From Escherichia coli (GTDB taxonomy: Bacteria > Pseudomonadota > Gammaproteobacteria > Enterobacterales > Enterobacteriaceae): DNA of 64,000 nucleotides. Under the pieces are notes generated by a model. That model worked only from the letters and a program-made list of their open reading frames with translations. It had not been told where the DNA came from and made no database searches. Position 1 is the stretch's first letter; every line of letters begins with the position of its first letter. Both the position numbers and the translations under genes were made by a program. This document shows positions 39,689 to 59,427 of this stretch, one piece after another. The DNA lies in the NCBI RefSeq assembly GCF_017348835.2, contig NZ_CP071375.1, one strand, 5' to 3'.

Positions 39689-39770
39689 TGCCTGATACGC
39701 TGCGCTTATCAGACCTGCAAACGACGTATTGATTATGTATGCCGGATAAGGCGTTCACGCCGCATCCGGC
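39689..39770. repeat. pair of REP elements (BIME-like) between puuE and pspF (GCCTGATACGCTGCGCTTATCAG... and GCCGGATAAGGCGTTCACGCCGCATCCGGC)
   Basis: both match the canonical enterobacterial REP palindrome types. Confidence 0.75.
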
Positions 39771-42545: not shown

Positions 42546-42860
42546 ATGTTTAAAAAAGGCTTACTTGCTCTGGCACTGGTGTTTTCACTGCCCGTTTTCG
42601 CCGCTGAACACTGGATCGATGTTCGTGTTCCAGAGCAGTATCAGCAAGAGCACGTTCAGGGGGCCATCAATATTCCCCTGAAGGAAGTGAAAGAGCGCAT
42701 TGCCACCGCCGTTCCGGATAAAAACGACACCGTGAAAGTGTATTGCAATGCCGGACGCCAGTCCGGGCAGGCAAAAGAGATCCTTAGCGAGATGGGATAT
42801 ACCCACGTTGAGAACGCCGGTGGCCTGAAAGACATCGCAATGCCGAAGGTCAAAGGTTAA
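42546..42860 (+). CDS. pspE: thiosulfate sulfurtransferase PspE (104 aa), rhodanese domain
   Basis: signal peptide; rhodanese active-site Cys (YCNAGRQS). Confidence 0.93.
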   Translation: MFKKGLLALALVFSLPVFAAEHWIDVRVPEQYQQEHVQGAINIPLKEVKERIATAVPDKNDTVKVYCNAGRQSGQAKEILSEMGYTHVENAGGLKDIAMPKVKG

Positions 42861-42876
42861 AAGAATTCACCATGAG

Positions 42877-42899
42877 CGGCGCTTATGCGCCGTTTTTTT
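42877..42899 (+). terminator. rho-independent terminator after pspE (CGGCGC-TTAT-GCGCCG + TTTTTTT)
   Basis: GC stem with tetraloop followed by a 7-T tract. Confidence 0.7.
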
Positions 42900-43070
42900 C
42901 TGTCACACCTTATTTACATCCCCATAGATTATTTGCGTCAGCTCACAAATACGCTTTTTCCCTGGTGAAAAATGATTTCCTGCGTGACTAAAACCCTTGT
43001 GCTCAATTGACAGTTTATTTTCTGCGGAGTAGTCTCTCGTTTCATGGGACCGCTACCACGGAAAGGCAAC

Positions 43071-44750
43071 ATGAAACAGAAAATTACGGATTACCTGGAC
43101 GAAATCTACGGTGGAACATTTACCGCAACTCATTTACAGAAACTTGTAACGCGTCTTGAGAGTGCGAAACGATTAATTACACAGCGACGTAAAAAACACT
43201 GGGATGAAAGTGACGTCGTGTTAATTACCTATGCCGATCAATTTCACAGTAATGATTTAAAACCACTACCCATATTTAATCAGTTCTACCATCAATGGCT
43301 GCAAAGCATTTTTTCACATGTTCATTTATTACCTTTTTACCCATGGTCATCTGATGATGGATTTTCGGTAATTGATTATCATCAGGTCTCCAGTGAAGCG
43401 GGGGAGTGGCAGGATATTCAGCAGCTCGGTGAATGCAGTCATTTAATGTTTGATTTTGTCTGCAACCATATGTCGGCAAAAAGTGAATGGTTTAAAAACT
43501 ATTTGCAACAGCTTCCGGGTTTTGAAGATTTCTTTATTGCGGTTGATCCGAAAACCGATCTCAGTGCCGTCACCCGTCCGCGTGCGTTACCGCTATTAAC
43601 GCCGTTTCAAATGGATGATAATTCCACGCGCCATTTATGGACCACCTTTAGCGACGATCAAATTGACCTCAATTACCGTAGCCCTGAAGTGTTGCTGGCG
43701 ATGGTGGATGTATTGCTGTGCTACCTGGAAAAGGGCGCAGAATATGTCCGTCTGGATGCCGTTGGCTTTATGTGGAAAGAGCCGGGAACAAGCTGCATCC
43801 ATCTGGAAAAAACACATCTGATTATCAAACTGTTACGGTCGATTATTGATGACATCGCGCCAGGTACGGTGATTATTACTGAGACGAATGTTCCGCATAA
43901 AGATAACATTGCTTACTTTGGCGAAGGCGATGACGAAGCGCATATGGTGTACCAGTTCTCGCTGCCGCCGCTGGTGTTACATGCGGTGCAAAAACAGAAC
44001 GTCGAGGCGCTGTGCCAGTGGGCGCAAAGTCTGAGCTTGCCCTCCGGTAAAACGACCTGGTTTAACTTCCTCGCCTCTCACGATGGCATCGGGCTGAACC
44101 CACTGCGGGGCTTGTTACCAGAAAGCGAAATATTAGCGCTGGTCGAGGCATTACAGCAGGAAGGTGCATTAGTAAACTGGAAAAATAATCCCGACGGTAC
44201 GCGCAGTCCCTATGAAATAAATGTCACCTATATGGATGCGTTAAGCCGCCGCGAGAGTAGCGATGAAGAACGTTGCGCCAGGTTTATCCTTGCCCATGCG
44301 ATTTTGTTAAGTTTCCCCGGTGTGCCAGCGATATATATTCAAAGTATTCTGGGCTCGCGTAATGATTACGCAGGTGTCGAAAAACTCGGATATAACCGTG
44401 CGATTAACCGTAAAAAATATCACAGTGAAGAGATAACACGAGAACTGAACGATGAAGCTACATTAAGGCATGCGGTATATCATGAGTTGTCGCGTTTAAT
44501 TACACTTCGTCGCAGCCATAACGAGTTTCATCCGGATAATAATTTTACCATCGATACGGTTAATTCATCCGTAATGCGTATTCAAAGAAGTAACGCTGAT
44601 GGTAATTGTCTGACTGGATTGTTTAATGTCAGTAAAAATATTCAGCATGTAAATATTACTGATCTGCATGGTCGGGATCTGATTAGTGAAGTTGATATAT
44701 TGGGTAATGAAATAACGCTGCGCCCCTGGCAGGTTATGTGGATTAAATAA
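43071..44750 (+). CDS. ycjM: GH13-family sucrose-phosphorylase-like glycoside phosphorylase YcjM (559 aa from MKQKITDY start)
   Basis: GH13_18-like sequence; first gene of ycjM-V cluster. Confidence 0.9.
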   Translation: MKQKITDYLDEIYGGTFTATHLQKLVTRLESAKRLITQRRKKHWDESDVVLITYADQFHSNDLKPLPIFNQFYHQWLQSIFSHVHLLPFYPWSSDDGFSVIDYHQVSSEAGEWQDIQQLGECSHLMFDFVCNHMSAKSEWFKNYLQQLPGFEDFFIAVDPKTDLSAVTRPRALPLLTPFQMDDNSTRHLWTTFSDDQIDLNYRSPEVLLAMVDVLLCYLEKGAEYVRLDAVGFMWKEPGTSCIHLEKTHLIIKLLRSIIDDIAPGTVIITETNVPHKDNIAYFGEGDDEAHMVYQFSLPPLVLHAVQKQNVEALCQWAQSLSLPSGKTTWFNFLASHDGIGLNPLRGLLPESEILALVEALQQEGALVNWKNNPDGTRSPYEINVTYMDALSRRESSDEERCARFILAHAILLSFPGVPAIYIQSILGSRNDYAGVEKLGYNRAINRKKYHSEEITRELNDEATLRHAVYHELSRLITLRRSHNEFHPDNNFTIDTVNSSVMRIQRSNADGNCLTGLFNVSKNIQHVNITDLHGRDLISEVDILGNEITLRPWQVMWIK

Positions 44751-44763
44751 AAAGGAACATCTC

Positions 44764-46056
44764 ATGATTAAATCAAAAATCGTGCTGTTATCAGCACTGG
44801 TTTCCTGCGCCCTGATTTCAGGCTGTAAAGAAGAAAATAAAACCCATGTATCCATCGAATTTATGCATTCTTCGGTGGAGCAGGAGCGTCAGGCAGTTAT
44901 CAGTAAATTGATTGCCCGTTTTGAAAAAGAAAACCCGGGCATCACCGTTAAACAAGTGCCAGTGGAAGAAGATGCCTATAACACCAAAGTCATCACCCTT
45001 TCACGTAGCGGCTCGCTGCCGGAAGTGATCGAAACCAGCCATGACTACGCCAAAGTTATGGACAAAGAGCAGCTTATCGATCGTAAAGCGGTTGCCACGG
45101 TCATCAGCAACGTTGGTGAAGGCGCGTTTTACGATGGCGTACTGCGTATTGTGCGCACCGAAGATGGGAGTGCCTGGACCGGTGTTCCTGTCAGCGCCTG
45201 GATTGGCGGCATCTGGTATCGCAAAGATGTGCTGGCAAAAGCCGGGCTGGAGGAGCCGAAAAACTGGCAGCAGCTGCTGGACGTTGCACAGAAACTGAAT
45301 GACCCGGCGAATAAAAAATACGGTATTGCGCTGCCTACAGCAGAAAGCGTGTTGACGGAACAATCCTTCTCCCAGTTTGCGTTATCCAACCAGGCCAACG
45401 TCTTTAACTCTGAAGGCAAAATCACCCTTGATACACCAGAGATGATGCAGGCGCTGACTTATTACCGCGACCTTGCCGCCAACACCATGCCGGGTTCTAA
45501 CGATATCATGGAAGTGAAAGACGCCTTTATGAACGGCACCGCGCCGATGGCGATTTACTCCACCTATATCCTTCCGGCTGTAATTAAAGAAGGCGACCCG
45601 AAAAACGTCGGTTTCGTGGTGCCAACCGAGAAAAACTCTGCGGTCTACGGCATGTTGACCTCGCTGACTATTACCGCCGGGCAAAAGACCGAAGAGACGG
45701 AAGCGGCGGAAAAATTTGTCACCTTTATGGAACAGGCGGACAACATTGCCGACTGGGTGATGATGTCGCCAGGCGCGGCGCTGCCAGTGAACAAAGCGGT
45801 GGTGACTACCGCCACCTGGAAAGACAACGACGTTATTAAGGCGCTGGGTGAACTACCGAATCAGCTAATCGGTGAACTGCCTAATATTCAGGTCTTTGGC
45901 GCAGTAGGGGATAAAAACTTTACCCGCATGGGCGATGTGACGGGTTCTGGTGTGGTGAGCTCCATGGTGCATAACGTCACCGTGGGTAAAGCCGATCTCC
46001 CTGGCACGCTACAAGCGAGCCAGAAAAAGTTGGATGAACTGATCGAACAGCACTAA
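44764..46056 (+). CDS. ycjN: ABC sugar transporter periplasmic binding protein YcjN (430 aa)
   Basis: signal peptide with lipobox-like LISGC; family 1 SBP. Confidence 0.9.
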   Translation: MIKSKIVLLSALVSCALISGCKEENKTHVSIEFMHSSVEQERQAVISKLIARFEKENPGITVKQVPVEEDAYNTKVITLSRSGSLPEVIETSHDYAKVMDKEQLIDRKAVATVISNVGEGAFYDGVLRIVRTEDGSAWTGVPVSAWIGGIWYRKDVLAKAGLEEPKNWQQLLDVAQKLNDPANKKYGIALPTAESVLTEQSFSQFALSNQANVFNSEGKITLDTPEMMQALTYYRDLAANTMPGSNDIMEVKDAFMNGTAPMAIYSTYILPAVIKEGDPKNVGFVVPTEKNSAVYGMLTSLTITAGQKTEETEAAEKFVTFMEQADNIADWVMMSPGAALPVNKAVVTTATWKDNDVIKALGELPNQLIGELPNIQVFGAVGDKNFTRMGDVTGSGVVSSMVHNVTVGKADLPGTLQASQKKLDELIEQH

Positions 46057-46076
46057 ACCCAGGACAGGAATCCGCA

Positions 46077-46958
46077 ATGAACAGGCTTTTTTCAGGTCGT
46101 TCCGATATGCCGTTTGCGCTGCTGCTTCTCGCGCCCAGCTTATTACTGCTGGGCGGTCTGGTGGCGTGGCCGATGGTGTCGAATATCGAAATCAGTTTTT
46201 TACGTCTGCCGCTCAATCCCAACATCGAGTCAACGTTTGTTGGGGTGAGTAACTATGTGCGCATTCTCTCCGATCCCGGCTTCTGGCACTCGCTGTGGAT
46301 GACGGTCTGGTATACGGCGCTGGTGGTGGCGGGCAGCACCGTGCTCGGGCTGGCCGTGGCGATGTTTTTCAACCGCGAGTTCCGCCTGCGCAAAACCGCG
46401 CGTTCGCTGGTGATCCTCTCCTACGTAACGCCGTCCATTTCGCTGGTGTTTGCCTGGAAATACATGTTCAACAACGGCTACGGCATTGTGAACTACCTCG
46501 GCGTCGATCTTCTGCATCTCTATGAGCAGGCACCGCTGTGGTTCGATAATCCGGGCAGTAGCTTTGTGCTGGTGGTGCTGTTCGCCATCTGGCGCTACTT
46601 CCCGTATGCCTTTATCTCGTTTCTGGCGATTTTGCAGACCATCGACAAATCGCTGTACGAAGCGGCAGAGATGGATGGCGCTAATGCCTGGCAGCGGTTT
46701 CGCATCGTCACGCTGCCCGCAATTATGCCGGTCCTGGCGACGGTGGTGACTCTGCGCACCATCTGGATGTTTTACATGTTCGCTGATGTTTATCTGCTGA
46801 CAACCAAGGTCGATATTCTCGGTGTCTATCTCTACAAAACCGCCTTTGCCTTTAATGACTTAGGGAAAGCGGCGGCGATCTCGGTGGTGCTCTTCATCAT
46901 TATTTTCGCTGTCATTCTGCTGACCAGGAAACGGGTGAACCTCAATGGCAACAAATAA
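46077..46958 (+). CDS. ycjO: ABC sugar transporter permease YcjO (293 aa)
   Basis: MalF/G-type permease with EAA loop. Confidence 0.9.
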   Translation: MNRLFSGRSDMPFALLLLAPSLLLLGGLVAWPMVSNIEISFLRLPLNPNIESTFVGVSNYVRILSDPGFWHSLWMTVWYTALVVAGSTVLGLAVAMFFNREFRLRKTARSLVILSYVTPSISLVFAWKYMFNNGYGIVNYLGVDLLHLYEQAPLWFDNPGSSFVLVVLFAIWRYFPYAFISFLAILQTIDKSLYEAAEMDGANAWQRFRIVTLPAIMPVLATVVTLRTIWMFYMFADVYLLTTKVDILGVYLYKTAFAFNDLGKAAAISVVLFIIIFAVILLTRKRVNLNGNK

Positions 46959-47787
46959 ACGCACACTCAGTCGTATCGGATTTTACTGCGGGCTGGCGCT
47001 GTTTCTCATCATCACGCTGTTTCCGTTTTTTGTGATGCTGATGACCTCGTTCAAGAGCGCAAAAGAGGCGATCTCGCTGCATCCTACGCTGCTGCCGCAA
47101 CAGTGGACGCTGGAGCATTACGTCGACATTTTTAACCCGGTGATATTCCCGTTTGTCGACTATTTCCGTAACAGCATGGTGGTGTCGGTAGTTTCATCCG
47201 TGGTGGCGGTATTTCTCGGCATTCTCGGGGCTTACGCGCTTTCCCGCCTGCGCTTTAAAGGGCGGATGACCATCAACGCCAGCTTTTACACGGTATACAT
47301 GTTCTCCGGCATTTTGCTGGTGGTGCCGCTGTTCAAAATCATCACCGCGCTTGGCATTTACGACACCGAGATGGCGCTGATCATTACCATGGTGACGCAA
47401 ACCCTGCCCACCGCCGTGTTTATGCTGAAAAGCTACTTCGACACCATCCCTGATGAGATCGAAGAAGCGGCGATGATGGATGGCCTCAACCGTCTGCAAA
47501 TTATCTTCCGTATCACCGTGCCCCTGGCGATGTCCGGGCTGATATCGGTGTTCGTCTACTGCTTTATGGTGGCGTGGAACGACTATCTGTTTGCGTCGAT
47601 TTTCCTCTCCAGCGCCAGCAATTTCACCTTACCAGTGGGCCTGAACGCGCTGTTCAGTACGCCTGATTACATCTGGGGACGCATGATGGCGGCCTCGCTG
47701 GTGACCGCATTGCCGGTGGTGATTATGTATGCGCTTTCGGAACGTTTTATTAAGAGTGGTTTGACCGCCGGTGGCGTGAAGGGCTAA
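46945..47787 (+). CDS. ycjP: ABC sugar transporter permease YcjP (280 aa)
   Basis: permease with EAA motif (EEAAMMDG); overlaps ycjO. Confidence 0.9.
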   Translation: MATNKRTLSRIGFYCGLALFLIITLFPFFVMLMTSFKSAKEAISLHPTLLPQQWTLEHYVDIFNPVIFPFVDYFRNSMVVSVVSSVVAVFLGILGAYALSRLRFKGRMTINASFYTVYMFSGILLVVPLFKIITALGIYDTEMALIITMVTQTLPTAVFMLKSYFDTIPDEIEEAAMMDGLNRLQIIFRITVPLAMSGLISVFVYCFMVAWNDYLFASIFLSSASNFTLPVGLNALFSTPDYIWGRMMAASLVTALPVVIMYALSERFIKSGLTAGGVKG

Positions 47788-47817
47788 AGCGGCCAGTTTA
47801 TTGACAAGGAGTTTTAA

Positions 47818-48813
47818 ATGAAAAAGTTAGTAGCCACGGCACCGCGCGTAGCGGCGCTGGTTGAGTATGAAGACAGGGCGATTTTAGCCAATGAAGTGAA
47901 GATCCGCGTGCGTTTCGGCGCGCCGAAGCACGGGACGGAAGTGGTCGATTTCCGCGCCGCCAGCCCGTTTATCGATGAAGACTTTAACGGTGAATGGCAG
48001 ATGTTCACCCCGCGCCCGGCAGATGCGCCGCGCGGCATTGAGTTTGGCAAATTCCAGCTTGGCAACATGGTGGTTGGCGACATTATCGAATGCGGCAGCG
48101 CCGTTACCGATTACGCGGTGGGCGACAGCGTATGCGGCTACGGCCCGCTTTCCGAAACGGTCATCATTAACGCGGTGAATAACTACAAGCTGCGCAAAAT
48201 GCCGAAAGGCAGTTCGTGGAAAAACGCCGTCTGCTACGACCCGGCGCAGTTTGCCATGAGCGGCGTGCGCGATGCCAACGTGCGCGTAGGGGATTTTGTG
48301 GTGGTGGTAGGGCTTGGCGCGATTGGTCAAATTGCCATCCAACTGGCGAAACGCGCTGGCGCGTCTGTGGTGATTGGCGTCGATCCTATCGCCCATCGCT
48401 GTGATATTGCCCGTCGCCACGGCGCGGATTTCTGCCTTAACCCCATCGGCACTGACGTAGGGAAAGAGATCAAAACGCTGACCGGCAAGCAGGGTGCCGA
48501 TGTGATTATCGAAACCAGCGGCTACGCCGACGCGCTGCAATCGGCACTGCGCGGCCTGGCTTACGGCGGCACCATCTCCTATGTCGCGTTTGCCAAACCG
48601 TTTGCCGAAGGTTTCAACCTCGGACGCGAAGCGCATTTCAATAACGCCAAAATTGTCTTCTCCCGCGCGTGCAGCGAACCGAACCCGGATTATCCGCGCT
48701 GGAGCCGTAAGCGTATTGAAGAAACCTGCTGGGAACTGCTGATGAACGGTTATCTCAATTGTGAAGATTTAATCGACCCGGTGGTGACCTTTGCTAACAG
48801 CCCGGAAAGCTAA
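47818..48813 (+). CDS. ycjQ: zinc-dependent MDR-family dehydrogenase YcjQ (331 aa as read here)
   Basis: AAGGAG RBS; Rossmann motif VVVGLGAIGQ; I remember K-12 listing a longer product, so the start is uncertain. Confidence 0.85.
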   Translation: MKKLVATAPRVAALVEYEDRAILANEVKIRVRFGAPKHGTEVVDFRAASPFIDEDFNGEWQMFTPRPADAPRGIEFGKFQLGNMVVGDIIECGSAVTDYAVGDSVCGYGPLSETVIINAVNNYKLRKMPKGSSWKNAVCYDPAQFAMSGVRDANVRVGDFVVVVGLGAIGQIAIQLAKRAGASVVIGVDPIAHRCDIARRHGADFCLNPIGTDVGKEIKTLTGKQGADVIIETSGYADALQSALRGLAYGGTISYVAFAKPFAEGFNLGREAHFNNAKIVFSRACSEPNPDYPRWSRKRIEETCWELLMNGYLNCEDLIDPVVTFANSPES

Positions 48814-48888
48814 ATGCAGTACGTTGACCAGCATCCGGAACAGAGCATCAAAATGGGCGTTACGTTTTAATTCAAAGGAATGAAAAAA

Positions 48889-49677
48889 ATGAAAATCGGC
48901 ACACAGAATCAGGCGTTCTTTCCGGAAAACATTCTAGAGAAATTTCGTTATATCAAAGAGATGGGCTTCGATGGTTTTGAAATCGACGGCAAACTGCTGG
49001 TCAACAACATCGAAGAAGTGAAAGCGGCGATCAAAGAAACTGGTTTACCGGTGACCACCGCCTGCGGTGGCTATAACGGCTGGATTGGCGACTTTATCGA
49101 AGAGCGTCGTCTTAATGGCTTAAAGCAGATAGAGCGCATTCTCGAAGCGCTGGCAGAAGTGGGCGGTAAAGGTATCGTCGTTCCGGCAGCGTGGGGCATG
49201 TTTACCTTCCGCTTACCGCCGATGACTTCACCGCGCAGCCTGGACGGCGACCGTAAAATGGTGAGCGATTCCCTGCGCGTACTGGAACAGGTAGCCGCGC
49301 GTACCGGAACCGTGGTGTATCTCGAACCGTTAAACCGTTATCAGGATCACATGATCAACACCCTCGCCGATGCCCGCCGTTACATCGTCGAAAACGATCT
49401 TAAACATGTGCAGATTATCGGCGATTTCTATCACATGAATATCGAAGAAGATAACCTGGCGCAGGCGCTGCATGACAACCGCGACCTGCTCGGTCATGTG
49501 CATATTGCCGATAACCATCGTTATCAGCCGGGCAGCGGCACCCTGGATTTCCACGCGCTGTTTGAACAACTGCGCGCCGATAATTATCAGGGCTATGTGG
49601 TGTATGAAGGGCGCATTCGGGCAGAAGATCCTGCCCAGGCGTACCGTGATTCTTTGGCCTGGTTGCGTACCTGCTAA
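48889..49677 (+). CDS. ycjR: sugar-phosphate isomerase/epimerase (TIM barrel) YcjR (262 aa from MKIGTQ start)
   Basis: xylose-isomerase-like TIM barrel sequence. Confidence 0.88.
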   Translation: MKIGTQNQAFFPENILEKFRYIKEMGFDGFEIDGKLLVNNIEEVKAAIKETGLPVTTACGGYNGWIGDFIEERRLNGLKQIERILEALAEVGGKGIVVPAAWGMFTFRLPPMTSPRSLDGDRKMVSDSLRVLEQVAARTGTVVYLEPLNRYQDHMINTLADARRYIVENDLKHVQIIGDFYHMNIEEDNLAQALHDNRDLLGHVHIADNHRYQPGSGTLDFHALFEQLRADNYQGYVVYEGRIRAEDPAQAYRDSLAWLRTC

Positions 49678-49686
49678 GAGGTCTTT

Positions 49687-50742
49687 GTGAAAAGTGCAAT
49701 GACAAGCTCTCCGCTGCGGGTCGCGATCATAGGCGCGGGCCAGGTGGCGGATAAAGTTCATGCTTCGTACTACTGCACCCGCAACGATCTGGAACTGGTG
49801 GCTGTCTGTGACAGCCGCCTTTCCCAGGCGCAGGCGCTGGCAGATAAATACGGTAATGCATCCGTGTGGGACGATCCGCAGGCCATGCTGCTGGCGGTGA
49901 AACCTGACGTGGTTAGCGTCTGCTCACCTAACCGTTTTCATTACGAACATACCCTGATGGCACTGGAAGCGGGCTGCCATGTGATGTGCGAAAAACCGCC
50001 CGCCATGACGCCAGAACAGGCGCGGGAAATGTGCGATATCGCGCGCAAACAGGGCAAGGTGCTGGCCTACGACTTTCACCATCGTTTTGCGCTCGATACG
50101 CAACAGCTGCGTGAACAGGTGACCAACGGCGTTTTGGGAGAGATTTACGTTACCACCGCCCGCGCCCTGCGTCGCTGCGGCGTTCCCGGCTGGGGTGTCT
50201 TTACCAATAAAGAACTGCAGGGTGGTGGCCCGCTGATCGACATCGGCATTCATATGCTGGATGCTGCAATGTATGTGCTGGGCTTTCCGGCGGTGAAAAG
50301 CGTGAATGCGCATAGTTTTCAAAAGATCGGCACGCAAAAGAGCTGTGGTCAATTTGGCGAGTGGGATCCGGCAACTTACAGCGTCGAAGATTCGCTGTTT
50401 GGCACCATTGAATTTCATAACGGCGGCATTCTGTGGCTGGAAACGTCATTTGCACTCAACATCCGCGAACAGTCGATTATGAACGTCAGCTTTTGCGGTG
50501 ATAAAGCCGGTGCGACGCTGTTTCCAGCACATATCTACACCGATAACAACGGTGAATTAATGACGCTGATGCAACGGGAAATGGCAGACGACAACCGCCA
50601 TTTGCGCAGCATGGAAGCCTTTATCAATCACGTACAGGGCAAGCCCGTGATGATAGCCGATGCCGAGCAGGGGTACATCATCCAGCAACTGGTGGCGGCG
50701 TTGTATCAATCCGCAGAAACAGGGACGCGTGTGGAATTATGA
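49687..50742 (+). CDS. ycjS: Gfo/Idh/MocA-family NAD(P)-dependent oxidoreductase YcjS (351 aa), GTG start
   Basis: N-terminal Rossmann fold (RVAIIGAGQVA). Confidence 0.88.
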   Translation: MKSAMTSSPLRVAIIGAGQVADKVHASYYCTRNDLELVAVCDSRLSQAQALADKYGNASVWDDPQAMLLAVKPDVVSVCSPNRFHYEHTLMALEAGCHVMCEKPPAMTPEQAREMCDIARKQGKVLAYDFHHRFALDTQQLREQVTNGVLGEIYVTTARALRRCGVPGWGVFTNKELQGGGPLIDIGIHMLDAAMYVLGFPAVKSVNAHSFQKIGTQKSCGQFGEWDPATYSVEDSLFGTIEFHNGGILWLETSFALNIREQSIMNVSFCGDKAGATLFPAHIYTDNNGELMTLMQREMADDNRHLRSMEAFINHVQGKPVMIADAEQGYIIQQLVAALYQSAETGTRVEL

Positions 50743-53006
50743 CCAGGCCAGTAACGTTATCAGAACCCCATTTCAGCCAGCATACCCTGAACAAGTATGC
50801 ATCACTGATGGCGCAGGGGAACGGCTATCTTGGGCTTCGCGCCAGCCATGAAGAAGATTACACGCGCCAGACGCGCGGCATGTATCTGGCGGGGCTGTAT
50901 CATCGGGCGGGTAAAGGTGAAATCAACGAACTGGTGAACCTGCCCGATGTGGTGGGGATGGAGATTGCCATAAATGGTGAGGTTTTCTCATTATCCCGCG
51001 AAGCCTGGCAGCGTGAGCTTGACTTTGCCAGTGGCGAATTACGCCGCAGCGTTGTCTGGCGTACCAGCAACGGCACAGGTTACACCATCGCCAGCCGTCG
51101 CTTTGTTTCGGCAGACCAACTGCCGCTCATTGCGCTGGAAATCACTATTACTCCACTGGACGCCGACGCGTCAGTGCTGATTTCAACAGGCATTGACGCC
51201 ACGCAAACCAATCACGGTCGCCAACATTTCGACGAAACCCAGGTGCGGGTGTTTGGTCAGCATCTGATGCAGGGGATCTACACCACCCAGGATGGACGCA
51301 GTGATGTGGCCATCAGCTGTTGCTGTAAGGTGAGCGGTGATGTGCAGCAATGCTATACCGCCAAAGAGCGCCGTTTGCTGCAACATACCAGCGCGCAACT
51401 TCACGCAGGCGAAACGCTGACGCTGCAAAAACTGGTGTGGATCGACTGGCGGGATGACAGGCAAGCTGCTTTAGACGAGTGGGGCAGTGCGTCGCTTCGC
51501 CAGCTTGAAATGTGTGCGCAGCAGAGTTACGACCAACTTCTTGCAGCATCAACAGAAAACTGGCGTCAGTGGTGGCAGAAACGTCGTATCACGGTAAACG
51601 GCGGCGATGCGCACGATCAGCAAGCGTTAGATTATGCGCTTTATCATCTGCGCATCATGACGCCTGCTCACGACGAGCGCAGCAGTATTGCGGCAAAAGG
51701 CTTAACCGGAGAAGGCTACAAAGGCCACGTTTTCTGGGATACAGAAGTATTTTTGCTACCGTTTCATCTGTTTAGCGATCCGACGGTTGCCCGAAGTTTA
51801 CTGCGTTATCGCTGGCACAACTTGCCAGGCGCGCAGGAGAAAGCGCGACGCAACGGCTGGCAGGGCGCGCTATTTCCGTGGGAGAGCGCACGCAGTGGTG
51901 AAGAAGAGACGCCGGAATTTGCCGCCATTAACATTCGCACCGGGCTGCGGCAAAAAGTGGCCTCGGCGCAGGCTGAACATCATCTGGTCGCCGATATCGC
52001 CTGGGCGGTTATTCAATACTGGCAGACAACGGGGGATGAAAGTTTCATTGCTCATGAAGGCATAGCGCTACTTCTGGAGAGCGCAAAGTTCTGGATTAGC
52101 CGCGCGGTAAGGGTTAACGACCGTCTGGAAATTCATGATGTTATTGGGCCAGACGAATATACCGAACATGTCAATAATAACGCCTTCACCAGCTATATGG
52201 CGTATTACAACGTCCAGCAGGCGCTGAACATCGCTCGTCAATTTGGCTGTAGCGACGTTGCGTTTATCCATCGCGCCGAAATGTTCCTCAAAGAGTTGTG
52301 GCTGCCAGAAACTCAGCCCGACGGCGTTTTGCCGCAGGATGATTCGTTTATGGCTAAGCCGGCGATTAATCTGGCGAAATACAAAGCGGCGGCGGGGAAG
52401 CAAACCATTCTGCTGGATTATTCACGCGCAGAAGTGAACGAGATGCAGATCCTCAAACAAGCTGATGTGGTGATGCTCAATTACATGCTGCCGGAGCAGT
52501 TCTCAGCGGCATCGTGTCTTGCCAATCTGCAATTTTATGAACCGCGCACTATTCACGACTCGTCATTAAGTAAAGCAATCCACGGCATTGTTGCCGCACG
52601 CTGTGGCCTGCTGACCCAAAGTTATCAGTTCTGGCGCGAGGGGACTGAAATCGATCTTGGTGCTGATCCGCATAGTTGTGATGATGGTATCCATGCTGCC
52701 GCAACTGGCGCTATCTGGCTGGGGGCGATTCAGGGTTTTGCCGGGGTGAGCGTGCGTGACGGTGAATTGCATCTAAATCCGGCGTTACCTGAGCAGTGGC
52801 AACAGTTGTCTTTCCCTCTGTTCTGGCAGGGCTGCGAATTACAGGTCACGCTCGACGCGCAGCGTATTGCGATTCGAACTTCTGCGCCCGTTTCACTGCG
52901 TTTGAACGGCCAGCTTATATCCGTGGCTGAAAAATCTGTTTTCTGTTTGGGTGATTATATTTTGCCCTTCAATGGGACCGCTACCACGCATCAGGAGGAT
53001 GAATGA
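50739..53006 (+). CDS. ycjT: GH65-family glycoside phosphorylase (kojibiose phosphorylase-like) YcjT (755 aa)
   Basis: GH65 sequence; overlaps ycjS and ycjU by 4 nt. Confidence 0.9.
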
Positions 53007-53662
53007 AACTGCAAGGGGTAATTTTCGATCTGGATGGTGTAATCACCGATACCGCGCATCTGCATTTCCAGGCGTGGCAGCAGATTGCCGCTGAAATTGG
53101 CATCAGCATTGATGCGCAGTTTAACGAATCCCTAAAAGGGATTAGCCGCGATGAGTCTCTGCGGCGCATTCTGCAATACGGGGGCAAAGAGGGCGACTTT
53201 AACTCGCAGGAGCGGGCGCAACTGGCGTATCGCAAAAATCTGCTCTACGTCCACTCACTGCGCGAACTGACGGTTAATGCCGTTCTGCCGGGGATCCGGC
53301 CTTTGCTGGCAGATCTCCGCGCACAGCAGATCCCGGTAGGGCTGGCTTCCGTCTCCCTGAATGCGCCGACGATTTTAGCGGCGCTGGAGCTGCGCGAGTT
53401 TTTCACCTTCTGCGCGGATGCTTCCCAACTTAAAAACTCGAAACCGGATCCGGAAATCTTTCTCGCTGCTTGTGCCGGGCTGGGCGTGCCGCCGCAGGCA
53501 TGTATCGGCATTGAAGATGCGCAGGCGGGCATTGACGCCATTAACGCCAGCGGTATGCGCTCGGTGGGGATCGGCGCGGGCTTAACCGGGGCGCAATTAC
53601 TATTGCCTTCAACGGACTCCCTGACCTGGTCGCGGTTATCGGCCTTCTGGCAAAACGTATAG
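53003..53662 (+). CDS. ycjU: beta-phosphoglucomutase YcjU (219 aa), HAD superfamily
   Basis: HAD motif I DLDGVITD. Confidence 0.92.
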
Positions 53663-53675
53663 CAAAGGAATCAAC

Positions 53676-54758
53676 ATGGCTCAGCTTTCGTTACAACATA
53701 TTCAAAAAATCTACGATAACCAGGTGCATGTGGTGAAGGACTTCAACCTGGAAATTGCCGATAAAGAGTTCATCGTATTTGTCGGCCCGTCGGGCTGCGG
53801 TAAATCGACCACCCTGCGCATGATTGCCGGGCTTGAGGAGATCAGCGGCGGCGATCTGTTGATCGACGGCAAACGAATGAATGACGTTCCAGCCAAAGCA
53901 CGCAATATCGCGATGGTGTTCCAGAACTACGCGTTGTATCCGCATATGACGGTCTACGACAACATGGCGTTTGGCCTGAAGATGCAAAAAATCGCCAAAG
54001 AGGTGATTGATGAGCGGGTGAACTGGGCGGCGCAAATTCTCGGCCTGCGTGAGTACCTGAAACGCAAGCCGGGCGCGCTTTCCGGCGGGCAACGCCAGCG
54101 TGTGGCGCTCGGGCGGGCGATTGTGCGCGAAGCGGGCGTGTTTTTAATGGATGAACCGCTCTCTAACCTTGATGCCAAGCTGCGCGTACAAATGCGCGCA
54201 GAGATCAGCAAGCTGCATCAGAAACTGAACACCACCATGATCTACGTGACCCACGATCAGACCGAAGCGATGACCATGGCGACGCGGATTGTGATTATGA
54301 AAGACGGGATTGTTCAGCAAGTGGGTGCGCCGAAAACCGTTTATAACCAACCCGCGAATATGTTTGTTGCCGGATTTATTGGATCACCAGCGATGAATTT
54401 TATTCGCGGCACGATCGATGGCGATAAATTCGTTACGGAAACGCTTAAATTAACCATTCCCGAAGAGAAATTAGCGGTTCTGAAAACACAGGAAAGTTTG
54501 CATAAGCCCATCGTGATGGGAATACGCCCGGAAGATATTCATCCGGACGCGCAAGAGGAAAATAACATTTCCGCCAAAATTAGCGTGGCAGAATTAACCG
54601 GTGCGGAATTTATGCTCTACACCACGGTTGGGGGGCACGAGTTAGTGGTCCGTGCTGGTGCGTTAAATGATTATCATGCAGGAGAAAATATCACCATTCA
54701 TTTTGATATGACGAAATGTCATTTCTTTGATGCAGAAACGGAAATAGCAATTCGCTAA
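53676..54758 (+). CDS. ycjV: ABC sugar transporter ATP-binding protein YcjV, MalK-like, intact 360 aa
   Basis: Walker A GPSGCGKST, signature LSGGQRQR, C-terminal TOBE-like domain; reading frame uninterrupted. Confidence 0.9.
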   Translation: MAQLSLQHIQKIYDNQVHVVKDFNLEIADKEFIVFVGPSGCGKSTTLRMIAGLEEISGGDLLIDGKRMNDVPAKARNIAMVFQNYALYPHMTVYDNMAFGLKMQKIAKEVIDERVNWAAQILGLREYLKRKPGALSGGQRQRVALGRAIVREAGVFLMDEPLSNLDAKLRVQMRAEISKLHQKLNTTMIYVTHDQTEAMTMATRIVIMKDGIVQQVGAPKTVYNQPANMFVAGFIGSPAMNFIRGTIDGDKFVTETLKLTIPEEKLAVLKTQESLHKPIVMGIRPEDIHPDAQEENNISAKISVAELTGAEFMLYTTVGGHELVVRAGALNDYHAGENITIHFDMTKCHFFDAETEIAIR

Positions 54759-54802
54759 ATACAGGGGGAAGGCATTCCCCCAGGATAATACAAGGAACAA
54801 TA

Positions 54803-55708
54803 ATGAAAAAGTTATTACCCTGTACCGCACTGGTGATGTGTGCGGGAATGGCCTGCGCACAGGCCGAGGAAAAGAACGACTGGCACTTTAATATCGGCGC
54901 GATGTACGAAATAGAAAACGTCGAGGGTTATGGCGAAGATATGGATGGGCTGGCGGAGCCTTCTGTCTATTTTAATGCCGCCAACGGGCCGTGGAGAATT
55001 TCTCTGGCCTATTATCAGGAAGGGCCGGTAGATTATAGCGCGGGTAAACGTGGAACGTGGTTTGATCGCCCGGAGCTGGAGGTGCATTATCAGTTCCTCG
55101 AAAGCGATGATTTCAGTTTCGGCCTGACCGGCGGTTTCCGTAATTATGGTTATCACTACGTTGATGAACCGGGTAAAGACACGGCGAATATGCAGCGCTG
55201 GAAAATCGCGCCAGACTGGGATGTGAAACTGACTGACGATTTACGTTTCAACGGTTGGTTGTCGATGTATAAATTTGCCAACGATTTGAACACGACCGGT
55301 TACGCTGATACCCGTGTCGAAACGGAAACAGGTCTGCAATATACCTTCAACGAAACGGTTGCTTTGCGAGTGAACTATTATCTCGAGCGCGGCTTCAATA
55401 TGGACGACAGCCGCAATAACGGTGAGTTTTCCACGCAAGAAATTCGCGCCTATTTGCCGCTGACGCTCGGCAACCACTCAGTGACGCCATATACGCGCAT
55501 TGGGTTGGATCGCTGGAGTAACTGGGACTGGCAGGATGATATAGAACGTGAAGGCCATGATTTTAACCGTGTGGGTTTATTTTACGGTTATGATTTCCAG
55601 AATGGTCTTTCCGTTTCGCTGGAATACGCGTTTGAGTGGCAGGATCACGACGAAGGCGACAGCGATAAATTCCATTATGCAGGTGTCGGCGTAAATTACT
55701 CGTTCTGA
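54803..55708 (+). CDS. ompG: outer-membrane porin OmpG (301 aa)
   Basis: signal peptide; beta-barrel with C-terminal YSF. Confidence 0.93.
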   Translation: MKKLLPCTALVMCAGMACAQAEEKNDWHFNIGAMYEIENVEGYGEDMDGLAEPSVYFNAANGPWRISLAYYQEGPVDYSAGKRGTWFDRPELEVHYQFLESDDFSFGLTGGFRNYGYHYVDEPGKDTANMQRWKIAPDWDVKLTDDLRFNGWLSMYKFANDLNTTGYADTRVETETGLQYTFNETVALRVNYYLERGFNMDDSRNNGEFSTQEIRAYLPLTLGNHSVTPYTRIGLDRWSNWDWQDDIEREGHDFNRVGLFYGYDFQNGLSVSLEYAFEWQDHDEGDSDKFHYAGVGVNYSF

Positions 55709-55722
55709 TAATGGGCTAAATT

Positions 55723-55796
55723 GCCGGATGCGGCGCGAGTACTTTATCCGATCTATAAATGTAGGCCGGATAAGATGCGCTAGCATCGCATCCGGC
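55723..55796. repeat. two REP-like palindromes (BIME-like) between convergent ompG and ycjW
   Basis: GCCGGATGCGGCGCGAGTACTTTATCCG and GGCCGGATAAGATGCGC...GCATCCGGC. Confidence 0.7.
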
Positions 55797-55818
55797 ATTC
55801 AGGCAAGGTAGCTGGTAT

Positions 55819-56817
55819 TTATTTCAGCGTCATATGCGTGGCAACGGTAATATTCTGTGGTGACGGTTTTCCAGAAATTAAGCGGAATAATAACTCGCAG
55901 CTTTGTTGACCTAACTCCTGCGTCGGAACATCGATGCCGCCCGGTGCAGGCGTTAAAATAAATGACAGCGTTTCATTGCTATAACCCACCACCGCTAACT
56001 GCTGCGGAATAGCAATATTTTTCTCTGCTGCCGCACGATAAATGCTCATTAATTTCAGGCTGTCAGTGGCAAACACCGCCTCAGGCAACGGTGACTGGCT
56101 TAATAATTCTCTCGCGGCTTGCAGTGCTGTTTCATGGGTATAACCGCCGTCAACAATCCATTCATCACGCACTGCAATATTATGCGCGGACAGACTTTGC
56201 TTATAACCATTTACCCGATCCACTGAAACATGGACATCAAGCGGTGCATGAAGGCAGGCAATGTTTTTATGTCCATTCTCAATTAATGCATCGGTTAGCG
56301 CAATGCTGTCACCAAAATTATCGGTATCGACAGAATAAACATGGGCATATTGACCTTCAACTTTGCCAATCACCACGACAGGAATATCGTATTTATCAAG
56401 TTGGGCAAAAAATGACTCATCCGCTGGCGAACTTAGCATAATAATGCCTTTAATCATTTTCTGCTTAATTGTGCTTTCACATTTTTGTAAGTCTTCTGCC
56501 AGGTTGTGCGACGTTTGTAATATCACGTCGAAACCTTCTTCTTCCGCTTTGGCGGTGATGGCATGTAGAACTTCTGAGAAAAACGGATTACCCGCCGTAG
56601 TTTTGGTCGAACGGGTAGAAATCACCATAATGGCATCAAAACCCGAAGAGGTCAGCGCGCGGGCCAGCTTGTTTGGCTGATACTGTAATTCTTCAATGGC
56701 CCGTAACACTTTTTCGCGCGCTTCCGGGGAGATATTGGTTTGCTTATTCAGCACGCGTGATACGGTGGATTTTGATACGCCTGCAACCCTGGCAATATCA
56801 TAAATAGTAGGGGACAT
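55819..56817 (-). CDS. ycjW: LacI-family transcriptional regulator YcjW (332 aa)
   Basis: N-terminal LacI HTH ([20 protein letters not shown]). Confidence 0.92.
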
Positions 56818-56971: not shown

Positions 56972-58369
56972 ATGAAGCGACTTAAAAATGAACTCAATGC
57001 GCTGGTGAATCGGGGTGTCGACAGACATCTGCGCCTCGCTGTAACCGGACTTAGCCGCAGCGGCAAAACAGCGTTTATCACCGCGATGGTTAATCAGTTG
57101 CTTAATATTCATGCCGGAGCACGCTTGCCGCTGTTAAGTGCGGTGCGTGAAGAGCGCCTGCTGGGCGTAAAACGCATTCCCCAGCGTGACTTTGGCATTC
57201 CGCGCTTCACCTATGATGAAGGGCTGGCGCAGTTATATGGCGATCCACCCGCCTGGCCAACGCCAACGCGCGGCGTCAGTGAAATCCGCCTGGCGCTACG
57301 TTTTAAATCGAATGATTCGCTGCTACGCCACTTTAAGGATACCTCCACGCTGTATCTGGAGATTGTGGATTACCCCGGCGAATGGTTGCTCGACCTGCCG
57401 ATGCTGGCGCAGGATTACTTAAGCTGGTCGCGCCAGATGACGGGCTTACTCAATGGTCAGCGCGGCGAATGGTCGGCGAAATGGCAAATGATGTGCGAAG
57501 GGCTGGACCCGCTAGCGCCTGCCGACGAAAACCGGCTGGCAGACATTGCCGCCGCGTGGACCGATTATCTCCACCACTGTAAACAGCAGGGGCTGCACTT
57601 TATTCAGCCAGGGCGCTTTGTCTTGCCGGGAGATATGGCAGGTGCGCCCGCGCTGCAATTCTTCCCGTGGCCGGATGTCGATGCCTGGGGCGAGTCCAAA
57701 CTCGCGCAGGCCGATAAGCATACCAATGCCGGAATGCTGCGCGAGCGGTTTAATTATTACTGCGAGAAGGTGGTGAAGGGGTTCTATAAGAACCATTTTC
57801 TGCGCTTTGACCGCCAGATTGTGCTGGTGGATTGCCTGCAACCTCTCAACAGTGGGCCACAGGCATTTAATGATATGCGTCTGGCGCTGACGCAGCTGAT
57901 GCAAAGTTTTCACTACGGGCAGCGAACCCTGTTCCGGCGTTTGTTTTCGCCGGTTATCGATAAGCTATTGTTTGCTGCCACTAAAGCAGACCATGTGACC
58001 ATCGATCAGCACGCTAATATGGTTTCATTACTGCAACAACTGATTCAGGATGCCTGGCAAAATGCGGCGTTCGAAGGGATCAGCATGGACTGCCTGGGGC
58101 TGGCGTCAGTTCAGGCGACCACCAGCGGCATTATTGATGTTAACGGTGAGAAAATCCCGGCGCTGCGTGGTAATCGACTTAGCGATGGCGCACCGCTCAC
58201 TGTTTATCCTGGCGAAGTTCCCGCACGTTTGCCTGGTCAGGCGTTCTGGGATAAGCAAGGCTTCCAGTTTGAGGCATTTCGTCCGCAGGTGATGGATGTC
58301 GACAAACCGCTGCCGCATATTCGTCTTGATGCCGCGCTGGAATTTTTAATAGGAGATAAATTGCGATGA
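56972..58369 (+). CDS. ycjX: YcjX, P-loop NTPase of the DUF463 family (465 aa from MKRLKNE start)
   Basis: Walker A-like GLSRSGKT; ORF track starts at 56891. Confidence 0.88.
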
Positions 58370-59427
58370 CCGAACCGTTAAAACCACGTATTGATTTCGA
58401 CGGTCCGCTGGAGGTCGATCAGAATCCAAAATTCAGGGCGCAGCAGACCTTTGACGAAAATCAGGCGCAAAATTTTGCCCCGGCCACGCTCGATGAAGCG
58501 CCTGAAGAAGAGGGGCAAGTTGAAGCGGTAATGGATGCAGCGTTACGTCCGAAACGCAGCCTGTGGCGCAAAATGGTGATGGGCGGGCTGGCTCTGTTTG
58601 GCGCAAGCGTTGTCGGGCAGGGTGTACAGTGGACAATGAATGCCTGGCAAACTCAGGACTGGGTGGCGCTGGGTGGATGTGCCGCTGGGGCATTGATTAT
58701 CGGCGCTGGCGTAGGTTCTGTGGTAACAGAGTGGCGGCGCTTATGGCGCTTGCGACAGCGCGCCCATGAACGCGACGAAGCGCGCGATTTGTTGCACAGC
58801 CACGGCACGGGCAAAGGCCGCGCATTTTGCGAAAAACTGGCGCAGCAGGCGGGTATTGATCAGTCGCATCCGGCGCTACAACGCTGGTATGCCTCAATCC
58901 ATGAAACGCAAAACGACCGTGAAGTGGTCAGCCTGTATGCGCATTTGGTCCAGCCAGTTTTAGATGCCCAGGCGCGGCGCGAAATCAGCCGTTCGGCGGC
59001 GGAATCAACGTTGATGATTGCGGTCAGCCCGCTGGCGTTGGTCGATATGGCGTTTATCGCCTGGCGCAATCTGCGTTTAATTAATCGCATCGCCACGCTG
59101 TATGGCATTGAACTGGGATATTACAGCCGTTTGCACCTGTTCAAGCTGGTATTGCTGAATATCGCTTTCGCCGGAGCCAGCGAACTGGTGCGCGAAGTGG
59201 GGATGGACTGGATGTCGCAAGATCTCGCTGCTCGTTTGTCTACCCGCGCAGCTCAGGGGATTGGTGCAGGACTTCTGACGGCACGACTCGGGATTAAAGC
59301 TATGGAGCTTTGCCGCCCGCTGCCGTGGATTGACGATGACAAACCTCGCCTTGGGGATTTCCGTCGTCAGCTTATCGGTCAGGTGAAAGAAACGCTGCAA
59401 AAAGGCAAAACGCCCAGCGAAAAATAA
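58366..59427 (+). CDS. ycjF: YcjF, DUF697/UPF0283 membrane protein (353 aa)
   Basis: 4-nt overlap with ycjX; TM segments. Confidence 0.88.

Follow-up and report, generated by a model that had tools for sequence, protein, structure and literature searches.

The ycj operon of Escherichia coli raises one real open question, which is recognized as such in the literature: what is the natural substrate of its pathway? A stretch of E. coli DNA of 64,000 nt (contig NZ_CP071375.1), hereafter called the window, contains at positions 43071–56817 a set of eleven genes of one orientation (ycjM-N-O-P-Q-R-S-T-U-V-ompG) and, converging on them, the LacI-type gene ycjW, as found in the list of open reading frames (ORFs) and in RefSeq. 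Gene coordinates were taken from the ORF list of the window and from RefSeq for the identical PE164 chromosome. We are highly confident that this locus represents the ycjMNOPQRSTUV-ompG operon of E. coli together with the repressor gene ycjW that converges on it. This assignment is based on the sequence identity and gene order shared with annotated genomes of E. coli, family assignments, matches to PDB structures and operators located at published chromatin immunoprecipitation sequencing (ChIP-seq) peaks. The essentials of the locus are already known from the literature and from RefSeq; since the E. coli locus is annotated at textbook level, nothing categorically new is added here. The comparative data, namely the glycerate kinase and esterase genes in related clusters and the conservation of the operator and promoter across phyla, are leads rather than discoveries and point to compounds and constructs for testing.

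Gene content and organization of the locus

An earlier note on this DNA had described an operon of eleven co-directional genes with a dedicated porin and a convergent repressor. All twelve genes were found at the claimed coordinates and on the claimed strands in the ORFs and the PE164 annotation, every family call was upheld by Pfam and NCBIfam scans, and the architecture of operon, porin and repressor and the gene identities agreed with the annotation and family scans. The order across the region is pspE, ycjMNOPQRSTUV-ompG, ycjW (convergent), ycjX, ycjF and tyrR, as annotated by RefSeq in K-12 MG1655 as well as in the identical record. The corresponding locus of K-12 MG1655 (b1309–b1320) has the same gene order, strands, spacings, operator 14-mers and promoter region. 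The products are 96–100% identical at the amino acid (aa) level, and the DNA is ~97% identical overall and 91–97% identical within ycjM–ycjR. The two loci differ in two lesions: ycjV is intact in the window and frameshifted in K-12 MG1655, whereas ycjQ carries a nonsense codon in the window and is intact in K-12 MG1655.

Overlaps of 4 nt, which had been claimed at several junctions, were found at ycjS/ycjT and ycjT/ycjU and nowhere else. The ycjO and ycjP genes overlap by 14 nt, and the remaining gaps are 9–44 nt long, except for 75 nt after the shortened ycjQ. Besides these short or overlapping junctions, a terminator of pspE and a candidate promoter are located upstream of the genes, and internal terminator-like sites occur at chance frequency.

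Phosphorylases and beta-phosphoglucomutase

The presence of two glycoside phosphorylases, a GH13-like YcjM and a GH65 YcjT, next to a beta-phosphoglucomutase was borne out by Pfam and NCBIfam. YcjM (gene position 43071–44750, + strand) contains the GH13 alpha-amylase domain PF00128, and its top NCBIfam match was sucrose phosphorylase, with a score under the cut-off of that model. It is identical to the characterized K-12 enzyme at 539 of 559 residues (96.4% aa). In addition, the sequence TETN, defined as a motif of glucosylglycerate phosphorylases (GGaP) in PMC7178133, was found at aa 270–273. In PMC7178133 and PMC8950772, YcjM is described as a strict 2-O-alpha-glucosylglycerate phosphorylase. 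All these characteristics, together with the RefSeq annotation, allow us to assume that the YcjM of the window is a GH13_18 glucosylglycerate phosphorylase.

YcjT (50739–53006, + strand) contains the N-terminal (PF03636), catalytic (PF03632) and C-terminal (PF03633) domains of the GH65 family, all with scores over the cut-off, and 737 of its 755 residues (97.6% aa) are identical to those of the characterized K-12 YcjT. The latter is presented as a characterized kojibiose phosphorylase in PMC11442529 and PMC8950772. The domain composition and near-identity, in line with RefSeq, indicate that the YcjT of the window is likewise a putative GH65 kojibiose phosphorylase. The product of ycjU, also named pgmB (53003–53662, + strand), scored 271.1 bits with the equivalog model TIGR01990 (cut-off 189.4), which classifies it as a beta-phosphoglucomutase; the same function is given for YcjU in PMC11442529 and PMC6599011. 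In published work on the near-identical proteins of K-12, kojibiose (Glc-alpha-1,2-Glc) is converted by phosphorolysis to glucose and beta-glucose-1-phosphate by YcjT, and the latter is converted to glucose-6-phosphate by YcjU.

ABC importer and OmpG porin

A full ATP-binding cassette (ABC) transporter had been claimed for the locus, and its parts were all identified: an SBP_bac_1 binding protein, two BPD_transp_1 permeases and an ATPase with the ABC_tran, OB_MalK and TOBE_2 domains. YcjN (44764–46056, + strand) is the lipoprotein substrate-binding protein of the importer according to the family scans. It matched PDB entry 8VQK (YcjN) with E = 2e-280 and has the lipobox ISGC with Cys21; its lipoprotein nature was shown experimentally (PMC11543891). 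The permease genes are ycjO (46077–46958, + strand; family scans, RefSeq), whose product is identical to that of K-12, and ycjP (46945–47787, + strand; ORF list, family scans, RefSeq). The ATPase gene ycjV (53676–54758, + strand) encodes an intact MalK/UgpC-type protein of 360 aa that scores 431 bits to MalK. With one binding protein, two permeases and a MalK-like ATPase with OB/TOBE domains in an intact frame, the system has the composition of a CUT1-type importer. By family, YcjN, YcjO/YcjP and YcjV are predicted to form a binding-protein-dependent ABC importer.

In K-12 MG1655, ycjV is a pseudogene (ycjV'/ymjB) with a 1-nt frameshift, whereas the intact allele is the common one and was found in at least 1000 contigs. 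Because of this frameshift, K-12 may be a poor model for transport by the ycj system.

The identification of OmpG (54803–55708, + strand) as a porin was confirmed by a Porin_OmpG (PF09381) score of 328 bits and by matches to PDB entries 2IWV and 2F1C over residues 22–301 (E about 1e-196); an N-terminal signal sequence is also present, and the protein can be assigned to the monomeric 14-strand porins. OmpG is characterized in PMC5727033 as a monomeric porin that passes mono- to trisaccharides, and such sugars cross the outer membrane through it.

A comparison with the maltose/maltodextrin regulon (LamB, MalEFGK2, MalP) indicated a common scheme of a dedicated outer-membrane channel, a binding-protein-dependent ABC importer whose ATPase is of the MalK type, and phosphorolysis of alpha-glucosides in the cytoplasm. 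However, the ycj genes form one operon under a LacI-type repressor, whereas the maltose genes form several operons under the MalT activator. The ycj system also differs in its monomeric, non-specific porin, its GH13_18 and GH65 phosphorylases and its additional redox/epimerase trio.

The YcjQ/YcjR/YcjS trio

The remaining enzymes are the two oxidoreductases and the TIM-barrel isomerase that had been claimed. YcjQ (47818–48813, + strand) belongs to the zinc-alcohol dehydrogenase/medium-chain dehydrogenase (zinc-ADH/MDR) family, YcjR (48889–49677, + strand) is a xylose-isomerase-like TIM barrel and YcjS (49687–50742, + strand) belongs to the Gfo/Idh/MocA family, as found in the family scans and, for YcjS, in RefSeq. 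YcjR matched PDB entry 6WN6, "3-keto-D-glucoside 4-epimerase", with E = 7e-179. In vitro assays of YcjQ, YcjR and YcjS on 3-keto-glycosides were reportedly performed by Mukherjee et al. in 2019 and Mabanglo et al. in 2020. In PMC11543891, PMC11116085 and PMC13053599, YcjS is a D-glucoside 3-dehydrogenase, YcjR a 3-keto-glycoside C4 epimerase acting on 3-keto-D-glucosides/gulosides and YcjQ a D-guloside 3-dehydrogenase, and the K-12 RefSeq annotation gives the three proteins the same glucoside/guloside dehydrogenase and epimerase names. The suggestion that the trio processes a rare or modified glucoside agrees with these publications and this annotation. In this published work on the K-12 proteins, YcjS oxidizes C3, YcjR epimerizes C4 and YcjQ reduces C3, so that D-glucosides and D-gulosides are interconverted via 3-keto intermediates.

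The YcjS and YcjR proteins could instead perform oxidative glycoside cleavage, in which C3 oxidation is followed by beta-elimination of the aglycone, as in the 3-keto-glycoside pathways of Bacteroides and Agrobacterium. YcjR shares its TIM-barrel fold class with beta-elimination lyases, and YcjS gave weak NCBIfam matches to BT_2159 "disaccharide 3-dehydrogenase", BT_2158 "glycoside 3-dehydrogenase" and levoglucosan dehydrogenase, although these matches lie far under the cut-offs (39.6 bits against 650 and 35.1 bits against 750). Enzymatic beta-elimination of 3-ketolevoglucosan takes place in other bacteria (PMC11116085). However, the 6WN6 structure of YcjR was deposited as a 4-epimerase, the literature describes C4 epimerization, and the second dehydrogenase YcjQ, which reduces the epimerized product, is always present. 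We consider oxidative cleavage highly improbable and retain epimerization as the role of the trio.

The ycjQ gene of the window is truncated, which had been overlooked earlier. Codon 332 is changed from TAT to TAA (stop at 48811–48813), so the product has 331 aa and not 350; a remnant of the reading frame extends to 48870, and the nonsense codon leaves the untranslated gap of 75 nt in front of ycjR. The exact 61-mer spanning this stop was found in 2 of 5,426 complete E. coli genomes, both from pig isolates, and the exact truncated protein was found in 34 contigs of a large contig collection. YcjQ orthologues from Enterobacteriaceae to Bacillales are 349–352 aa long, and in an alignment the missing tail hardly varies between phyla. 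Since 10 of its 19 residues show a conservation of 90% or more from E. coli to Bacillales, its loss is probably damaging. In PDB, no YcjQ structure was found, and the best matches were threonine dehydrogenases aligned over residues 119–257 only. Modeling of full-length YcjQ using AlphaFold2 with a 12-sequence alignment led to a model that was too poor for use (mean predicted local distance difference test score 60, tail below 50). YcjR and YcjS are intact, whereas YcjQ is missing its last 19 residues. The window strain thus has an intact importer ATPase but probably an impaired guloside branch, and the nonsense allele could serve as a natural partial knockout for probing this branch.

Regulation by YcjW

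The convergent regulator gene ycjW (55819–56817, − strand) encodes a protein with the LacI helix-turn-helix (HTH) and Peripla_BP domains, in accordance with the LacI type claimed for it. YcjW has 97.9% aa identity to its K-12 counterpart and keeps the wild-type Ser258. An operator search upstream of ycjM, which had been proposed as a check, revealed operator O1 (43044–43060, + strand) at the site published from ChIP-seq and electrophoretic mobility shift assays (EMSA) (PMC6599011). Its 14-bp core TGGGACCGCTACCA occupies 43045–43058, 12 nt 5′ of the ycjM ATG. The second operator, O2 (52972–52988, + strand; core 52973–52986), is located in the 3′ end of ycjT, 16 nt 5′ of the ycjU ATG. O1 and O2 are the identical 17-mer ATGGGACCGCTACCACG and its only exact copies in the window, where matches with three mismatches occur at chance frequency. 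Each TGGGACCGCTACCA site is centred on CG, and 10 of its 14 positions are self-complementary.

The two strongest YcjW ChIP-seq peaks, confirmed by EMSA, lie at the positions of O1 and O2, the second being described as "between ycjT and ycjU" (PMC6599011). The operator search is thus both published and reproducible from sequence. In the same work, 0.5–1 mM kojibiose released YcjW from DNA in EMSA, and sucrose and trehalose did not; deletion of ycjW led to co-derepression of ycjM, ycjT, ycjU and ompG and was characterized by quantitative reverse transcription PCR, H2S production and growth on kojibiose (PMC6599011). A phenotype-microarray screen of the ycjW deletion, also proposed earlier, was not found in the literature. 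By its domains and cognate operators, YcjW can be classified as a LacI-family repressor of the operon, the function demonstrated in PMC6599011. It binds both operators, just downstream of the ycjM promoter and just upstream of ycjU, and represses the whole set, with kojibiose releasing it in vitro.

The upstream boundary of the ycj unit is the intrinsic terminator of pspE (42874–42899, + strand), which has 6 G-C pairs in its 9-bp stem and a T run after it. A candidate ycjM promoter (43007–43035, + strand) consists of a −35 element TTGACA (43007–43012), a 17-nt spacer and a weak −10 element TAGTCT (43030–43035), which lies 9 nt 5′ of the O1 core. An arrangement of TTGACA, 17 nt and TAGTCT, TAGATT or TATAAT, located 8–9 nt 5′ of the operator, is present in K-12, Enterobacter and Listeria, the −10 element being a perfect TATAAT in Listeria. 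K-12 has both operators unchanged; of the two in Enterobacter cancerogenus, O1 matches exactly and O2 with one mismatch. Moreover, the operator core TGGGAnCGnTnCCA was found 5′ of the first gene of ycj-like clusters from Listeria, Peribacillus, Paenibacillus and a Budviciaceae genome. E. coli, Enterobacter, Listeria, Peribacillus and Paenibacillus have a second copy inside the cluster, and no such copy was found in the Budviciaceae genome.

An A/T-rich −10-like element TATATT (52956–52961) is located 11 nt 5′ of O2, similar to the geometry of the ycjM promoter, with no good −35 element there. Judging by its position, this element could be an internal promoter for ycjU-ycjV-ompG.

Directly upstream of the locus lies the rhodanese gene pspE (42546–42860) with its own terminator. 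The amount of pspE mRNA increases when YcjW is lost, though there is no operator near pspE (PMC6599011), and the search of the window did not reveal one there either.

The substrate question

The identified functions lead us to infer that the enzymes and importer of the operon all serve a single class of glycosides, imported and with alpha-1,2 linkages. A number of points weigh against this picture of a single operon with a defined sugar. D-gulosides, to which the YcjQRS trio would give access, are very rare in nature. The single mRNA of eleven genes is inferred from the spacing of the genes and their co-regulation. A promoter scan revealed no strong consensus sigma-70 promoter, and the sites found in the promoter and terminator scan were no commoner than in shuffled sequence. 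The ycjM promoter was missed by the scan because its −10 element is weak; the tentative assignment of this promoter therefore rests on cross-species conservation. K-12 did not grow when kojibiose was its only source of carbon, and the authors of that study doubted that kojibiose is the natural inducer and suspected "some derivative of kojibiose" (PMC6599011). YcjN was crystallized empty and bound none of the screened sugars, kojibiose included (PMC11543891, 2024). The view that the substrate is only partly established still holds, as the literature through 2024–2026 does not define the full pathway and natural substrate. A preprint of June 2026 refers to the ycj operon as one for "uncharacterized carbohydrates"; in its transposon screen, ycj was among the carbohydrate-use genes specifically required for gut colonization with the microbiota present, which suggests relevance of the pathway to colonization (10.64898/2026.06.25.730905).

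Distribution and variation in E. coli

The 13.7-kb stretch is 100% identical to two chromosomes of pig E. coli isolates (PE164 and F2_81). The cluster was matched in 5,051 of the 5,426 complete E. coli genomes and covered to at least 80% in 4,942 of them (91%). About 7% of complete genomes are without the ycj cluster, whereas ycjX-ycjF is nearly universal. The number of genomes in the 90–95% identity band was 1,336 for ycjM-ycjN (43071–46056) and 20 for ycjX-ycjF (56972–59427), which means that ycjM-ycjN is far more polymorphic within E. coli than the flanking genes.

These data bear on the possibility that the cluster is cryptic and decaying, a remnant that no longer has a catabolic role and is kept mainly by linkage or by side effects such as those of YcjW on pspE and H2S. 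The ycjV frameshift of K-12, the ycjQ nonsense codon of the window strain, the genomes without the cluster next to the nearly universal ycjX-ycjF and the unusual polymorphism of ycjM-ycjN are consistent with decay, as are the failure to grow on kojibiose and the rise in pspE expression upon de-repression (PMC6599011). However, at least 80% of the cluster is kept in the large majority of complete genomes, the intact ycjV allele is the common one, and the lesions are rare and lineage-specific. In addition, both the operators and the order of the genes are conserved in other genera and phyla, and the 2026 transposon screen links the operon to gut colonization with the microbiota present (10.64898/2026.06.25.730905). 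A decaying remnant is thus unlikely, and the cluster is treated here as a catabolic operon.

Foreign import of the cluster, considered in view of its lower identity to K-12, was rejected: complete genomes with at least 99% identity numbered two for the ycjX-ycjF flank and four for the cluster, and the next best matches had about 98% (98.3% for the flank). The flank, too, has few close relatives, which indicates for the whole region (39000–61000) that the strain comes from a lineage with few sampled genomes. Among the matches of the cluster, six were located on records labelled as plasmids.

Related clusters and candidate substrates

Six related loci were examined via look-ups of exact proteins: those of Enterobacter cancerogenus, a Budviciaceae genome, Listeria, Peribacillus, Paenibacillus and Vibrio cholerae. 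All six contain the GH13_18 and GH65 enzymes, beta-phosphoglucomutase, the YcjQ/R/S trio, the binding protein and both permeases together. The ATPase gene was called in four of them and is missing from those of Listeria and Peribacillus. In Enterobacter cancerogenus, all twelve genes are found at the corresponding position, and the Budviciaceae genome has the same order with a glycerate kinase gene between ycjT and ycjU. In Listeria and Peribacillus, a divergent LacI gene is followed by ycjMNOPQRST, glycerate kinase and ycjU. Thus, the order ycjMNOPQRST...U is the same in Listeria, Peribacillus and Budviciaceae, whereas Paenibacillus (P. cremeus) has the same genes in a rearranged set with a GDSL-type lipase/esterase gene between the ycjQ and ycjR homologues (L008:11129-11806). 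The Vibrio cholerae locus consists of two divergent halves with a disrupted LacI gene. The clusters of Firmicutes have no porin and a divergent regulator, unlike that of E. coli with its porin and convergent regulator.

The products of the window and of Listeria have 48–79% aa identity (59% for the LacI regulator); conservation is strongest in the permeases, YcjQ and YcjR and weakest in the phosphorylases. For organisms of two phyla, such identity is high, and it suggests that the whole unit, regulator and operator included, was transferred between phyla.

The kojibiose clusters of Thermoanaerobacter brockii and Pyrococcus sp. ST04 have the same pairing of a GH65 phosphorylase and beta-phosphoglucomutase as ycj, the mutase feeding beta-glucose-1-phosphate into glycolysis, according to PMC6599011 and PMC11442529; ycj adds GGaP, YcjQRS and a porin. 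The E. coli YcjT is the only characterized kojibiose phosphorylase reported to be inactive on longer alpha-1,2 oligoglucans (PMC11442529).

The glycerate kinase genes (PF02595) between the GH65 and beta-phosphoglucomutase genes (L005:15118-16236, L007:15230-16375 and L009:15175-16305; Listeria, Peribacillus and Budviciaceae) suggest glycerate as a pathway product, so that an alpha-1,2 glycoside anchored on glycerate is a reasonable candidate for the substrate; judged from gene content, this is a lead and not a result. The whole operon could then serve a single natural substrate, a glycerate-anchored alpha-1,2 oligoglycoside such as kojibiosyl- or gulosyl-glucosyl-glycerate, possibly acylated. 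In this case, YcjQRS would convert gulosyl to glucosyl units, YcjT would remove the outer glucose as beta-glucose-1-phosphate, YcjM would cleave glucosylglycerate, and a kinase would send glycerate into glycolysis. The kinase genes in three related clusters are consistent with this, and so are the esterase inserted in the Paenibacillus version, the constant co-occurrence of both phosphorylases and the QRS trio in the loci examined and the alpha-1,2 glucosyl bonds cleaved by both phosphorylases. GGaP genes often adjoin glycerate kinase genes (PMC7178133), and kojibiose is poor for growth, a derivative of it being the suspected inducer (PMC6599011). On the other hand, the clusters of E. coli, Enterobacter, Vibrio and Paenibacillus do not contain the kinase, E. 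coli is not known to have access to any such compound, and the co-occurrence equally fits independent modules under one regulator. A single substrate of this kind is therefore put forward tentatively, as a possibility with the balance still against it. The fuller proposal, in which the oligoglycoside (kojibiosyl- or gulosyl-glucosylglycerate, perhaps acylated) is scavenged from microbes or plants and broken down stepwise while the internal operator marks a separately controlled promoter, appears rather doubtful to us. The Paenibacillus GDSL esterase also hints at an acylated natural substrate.

REP pair and other small elements

Repetitive extragenic palindromic (REP) elements, which had been noted at the 3′ end of the cluster, are indeed present in the 110-nt convergent spacer between ompG and ycjW, more precisely as one inverted pair (55722–55798). 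The exact 14-nt REP core CTTATCCGGCCTAC was found on the − strand at 55761–55774 (chance expectation 0.29 at up to 2 mismatches). A REP pattern with fixed spacing gave no match, whereas the shorter core did. The pair folds with −46.3 kcal/mol (z = −4.65), its inverted arms were found, and it gave a sub-threshold Rfam match to the REP-derived naRNA4. It corresponds to the definition of REP elements and bacterial interspersed mosaic elements as extragenic imperfect palindromes of ~35 nt with GCCGGATG...CTTATCCGGCCTAC ends, often in inverted pairs. The pair is likely a 3′-end stabilizer or terminator for both transcripts.

A G+C-rich hairpin, GGGGGAAGGCATTCCCCC (54764–54781, + strand), is located in the 44-nt spacer between ycjV and ompG and is not followed by a T run on the + strand. 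It may act in mRNA processing or stability and thereby set the expression of ompG apart. In addition, a REP-like core with one mismatch, CTTATCCGGCATAC, was found at 39737–39750, upstream of the psp region.

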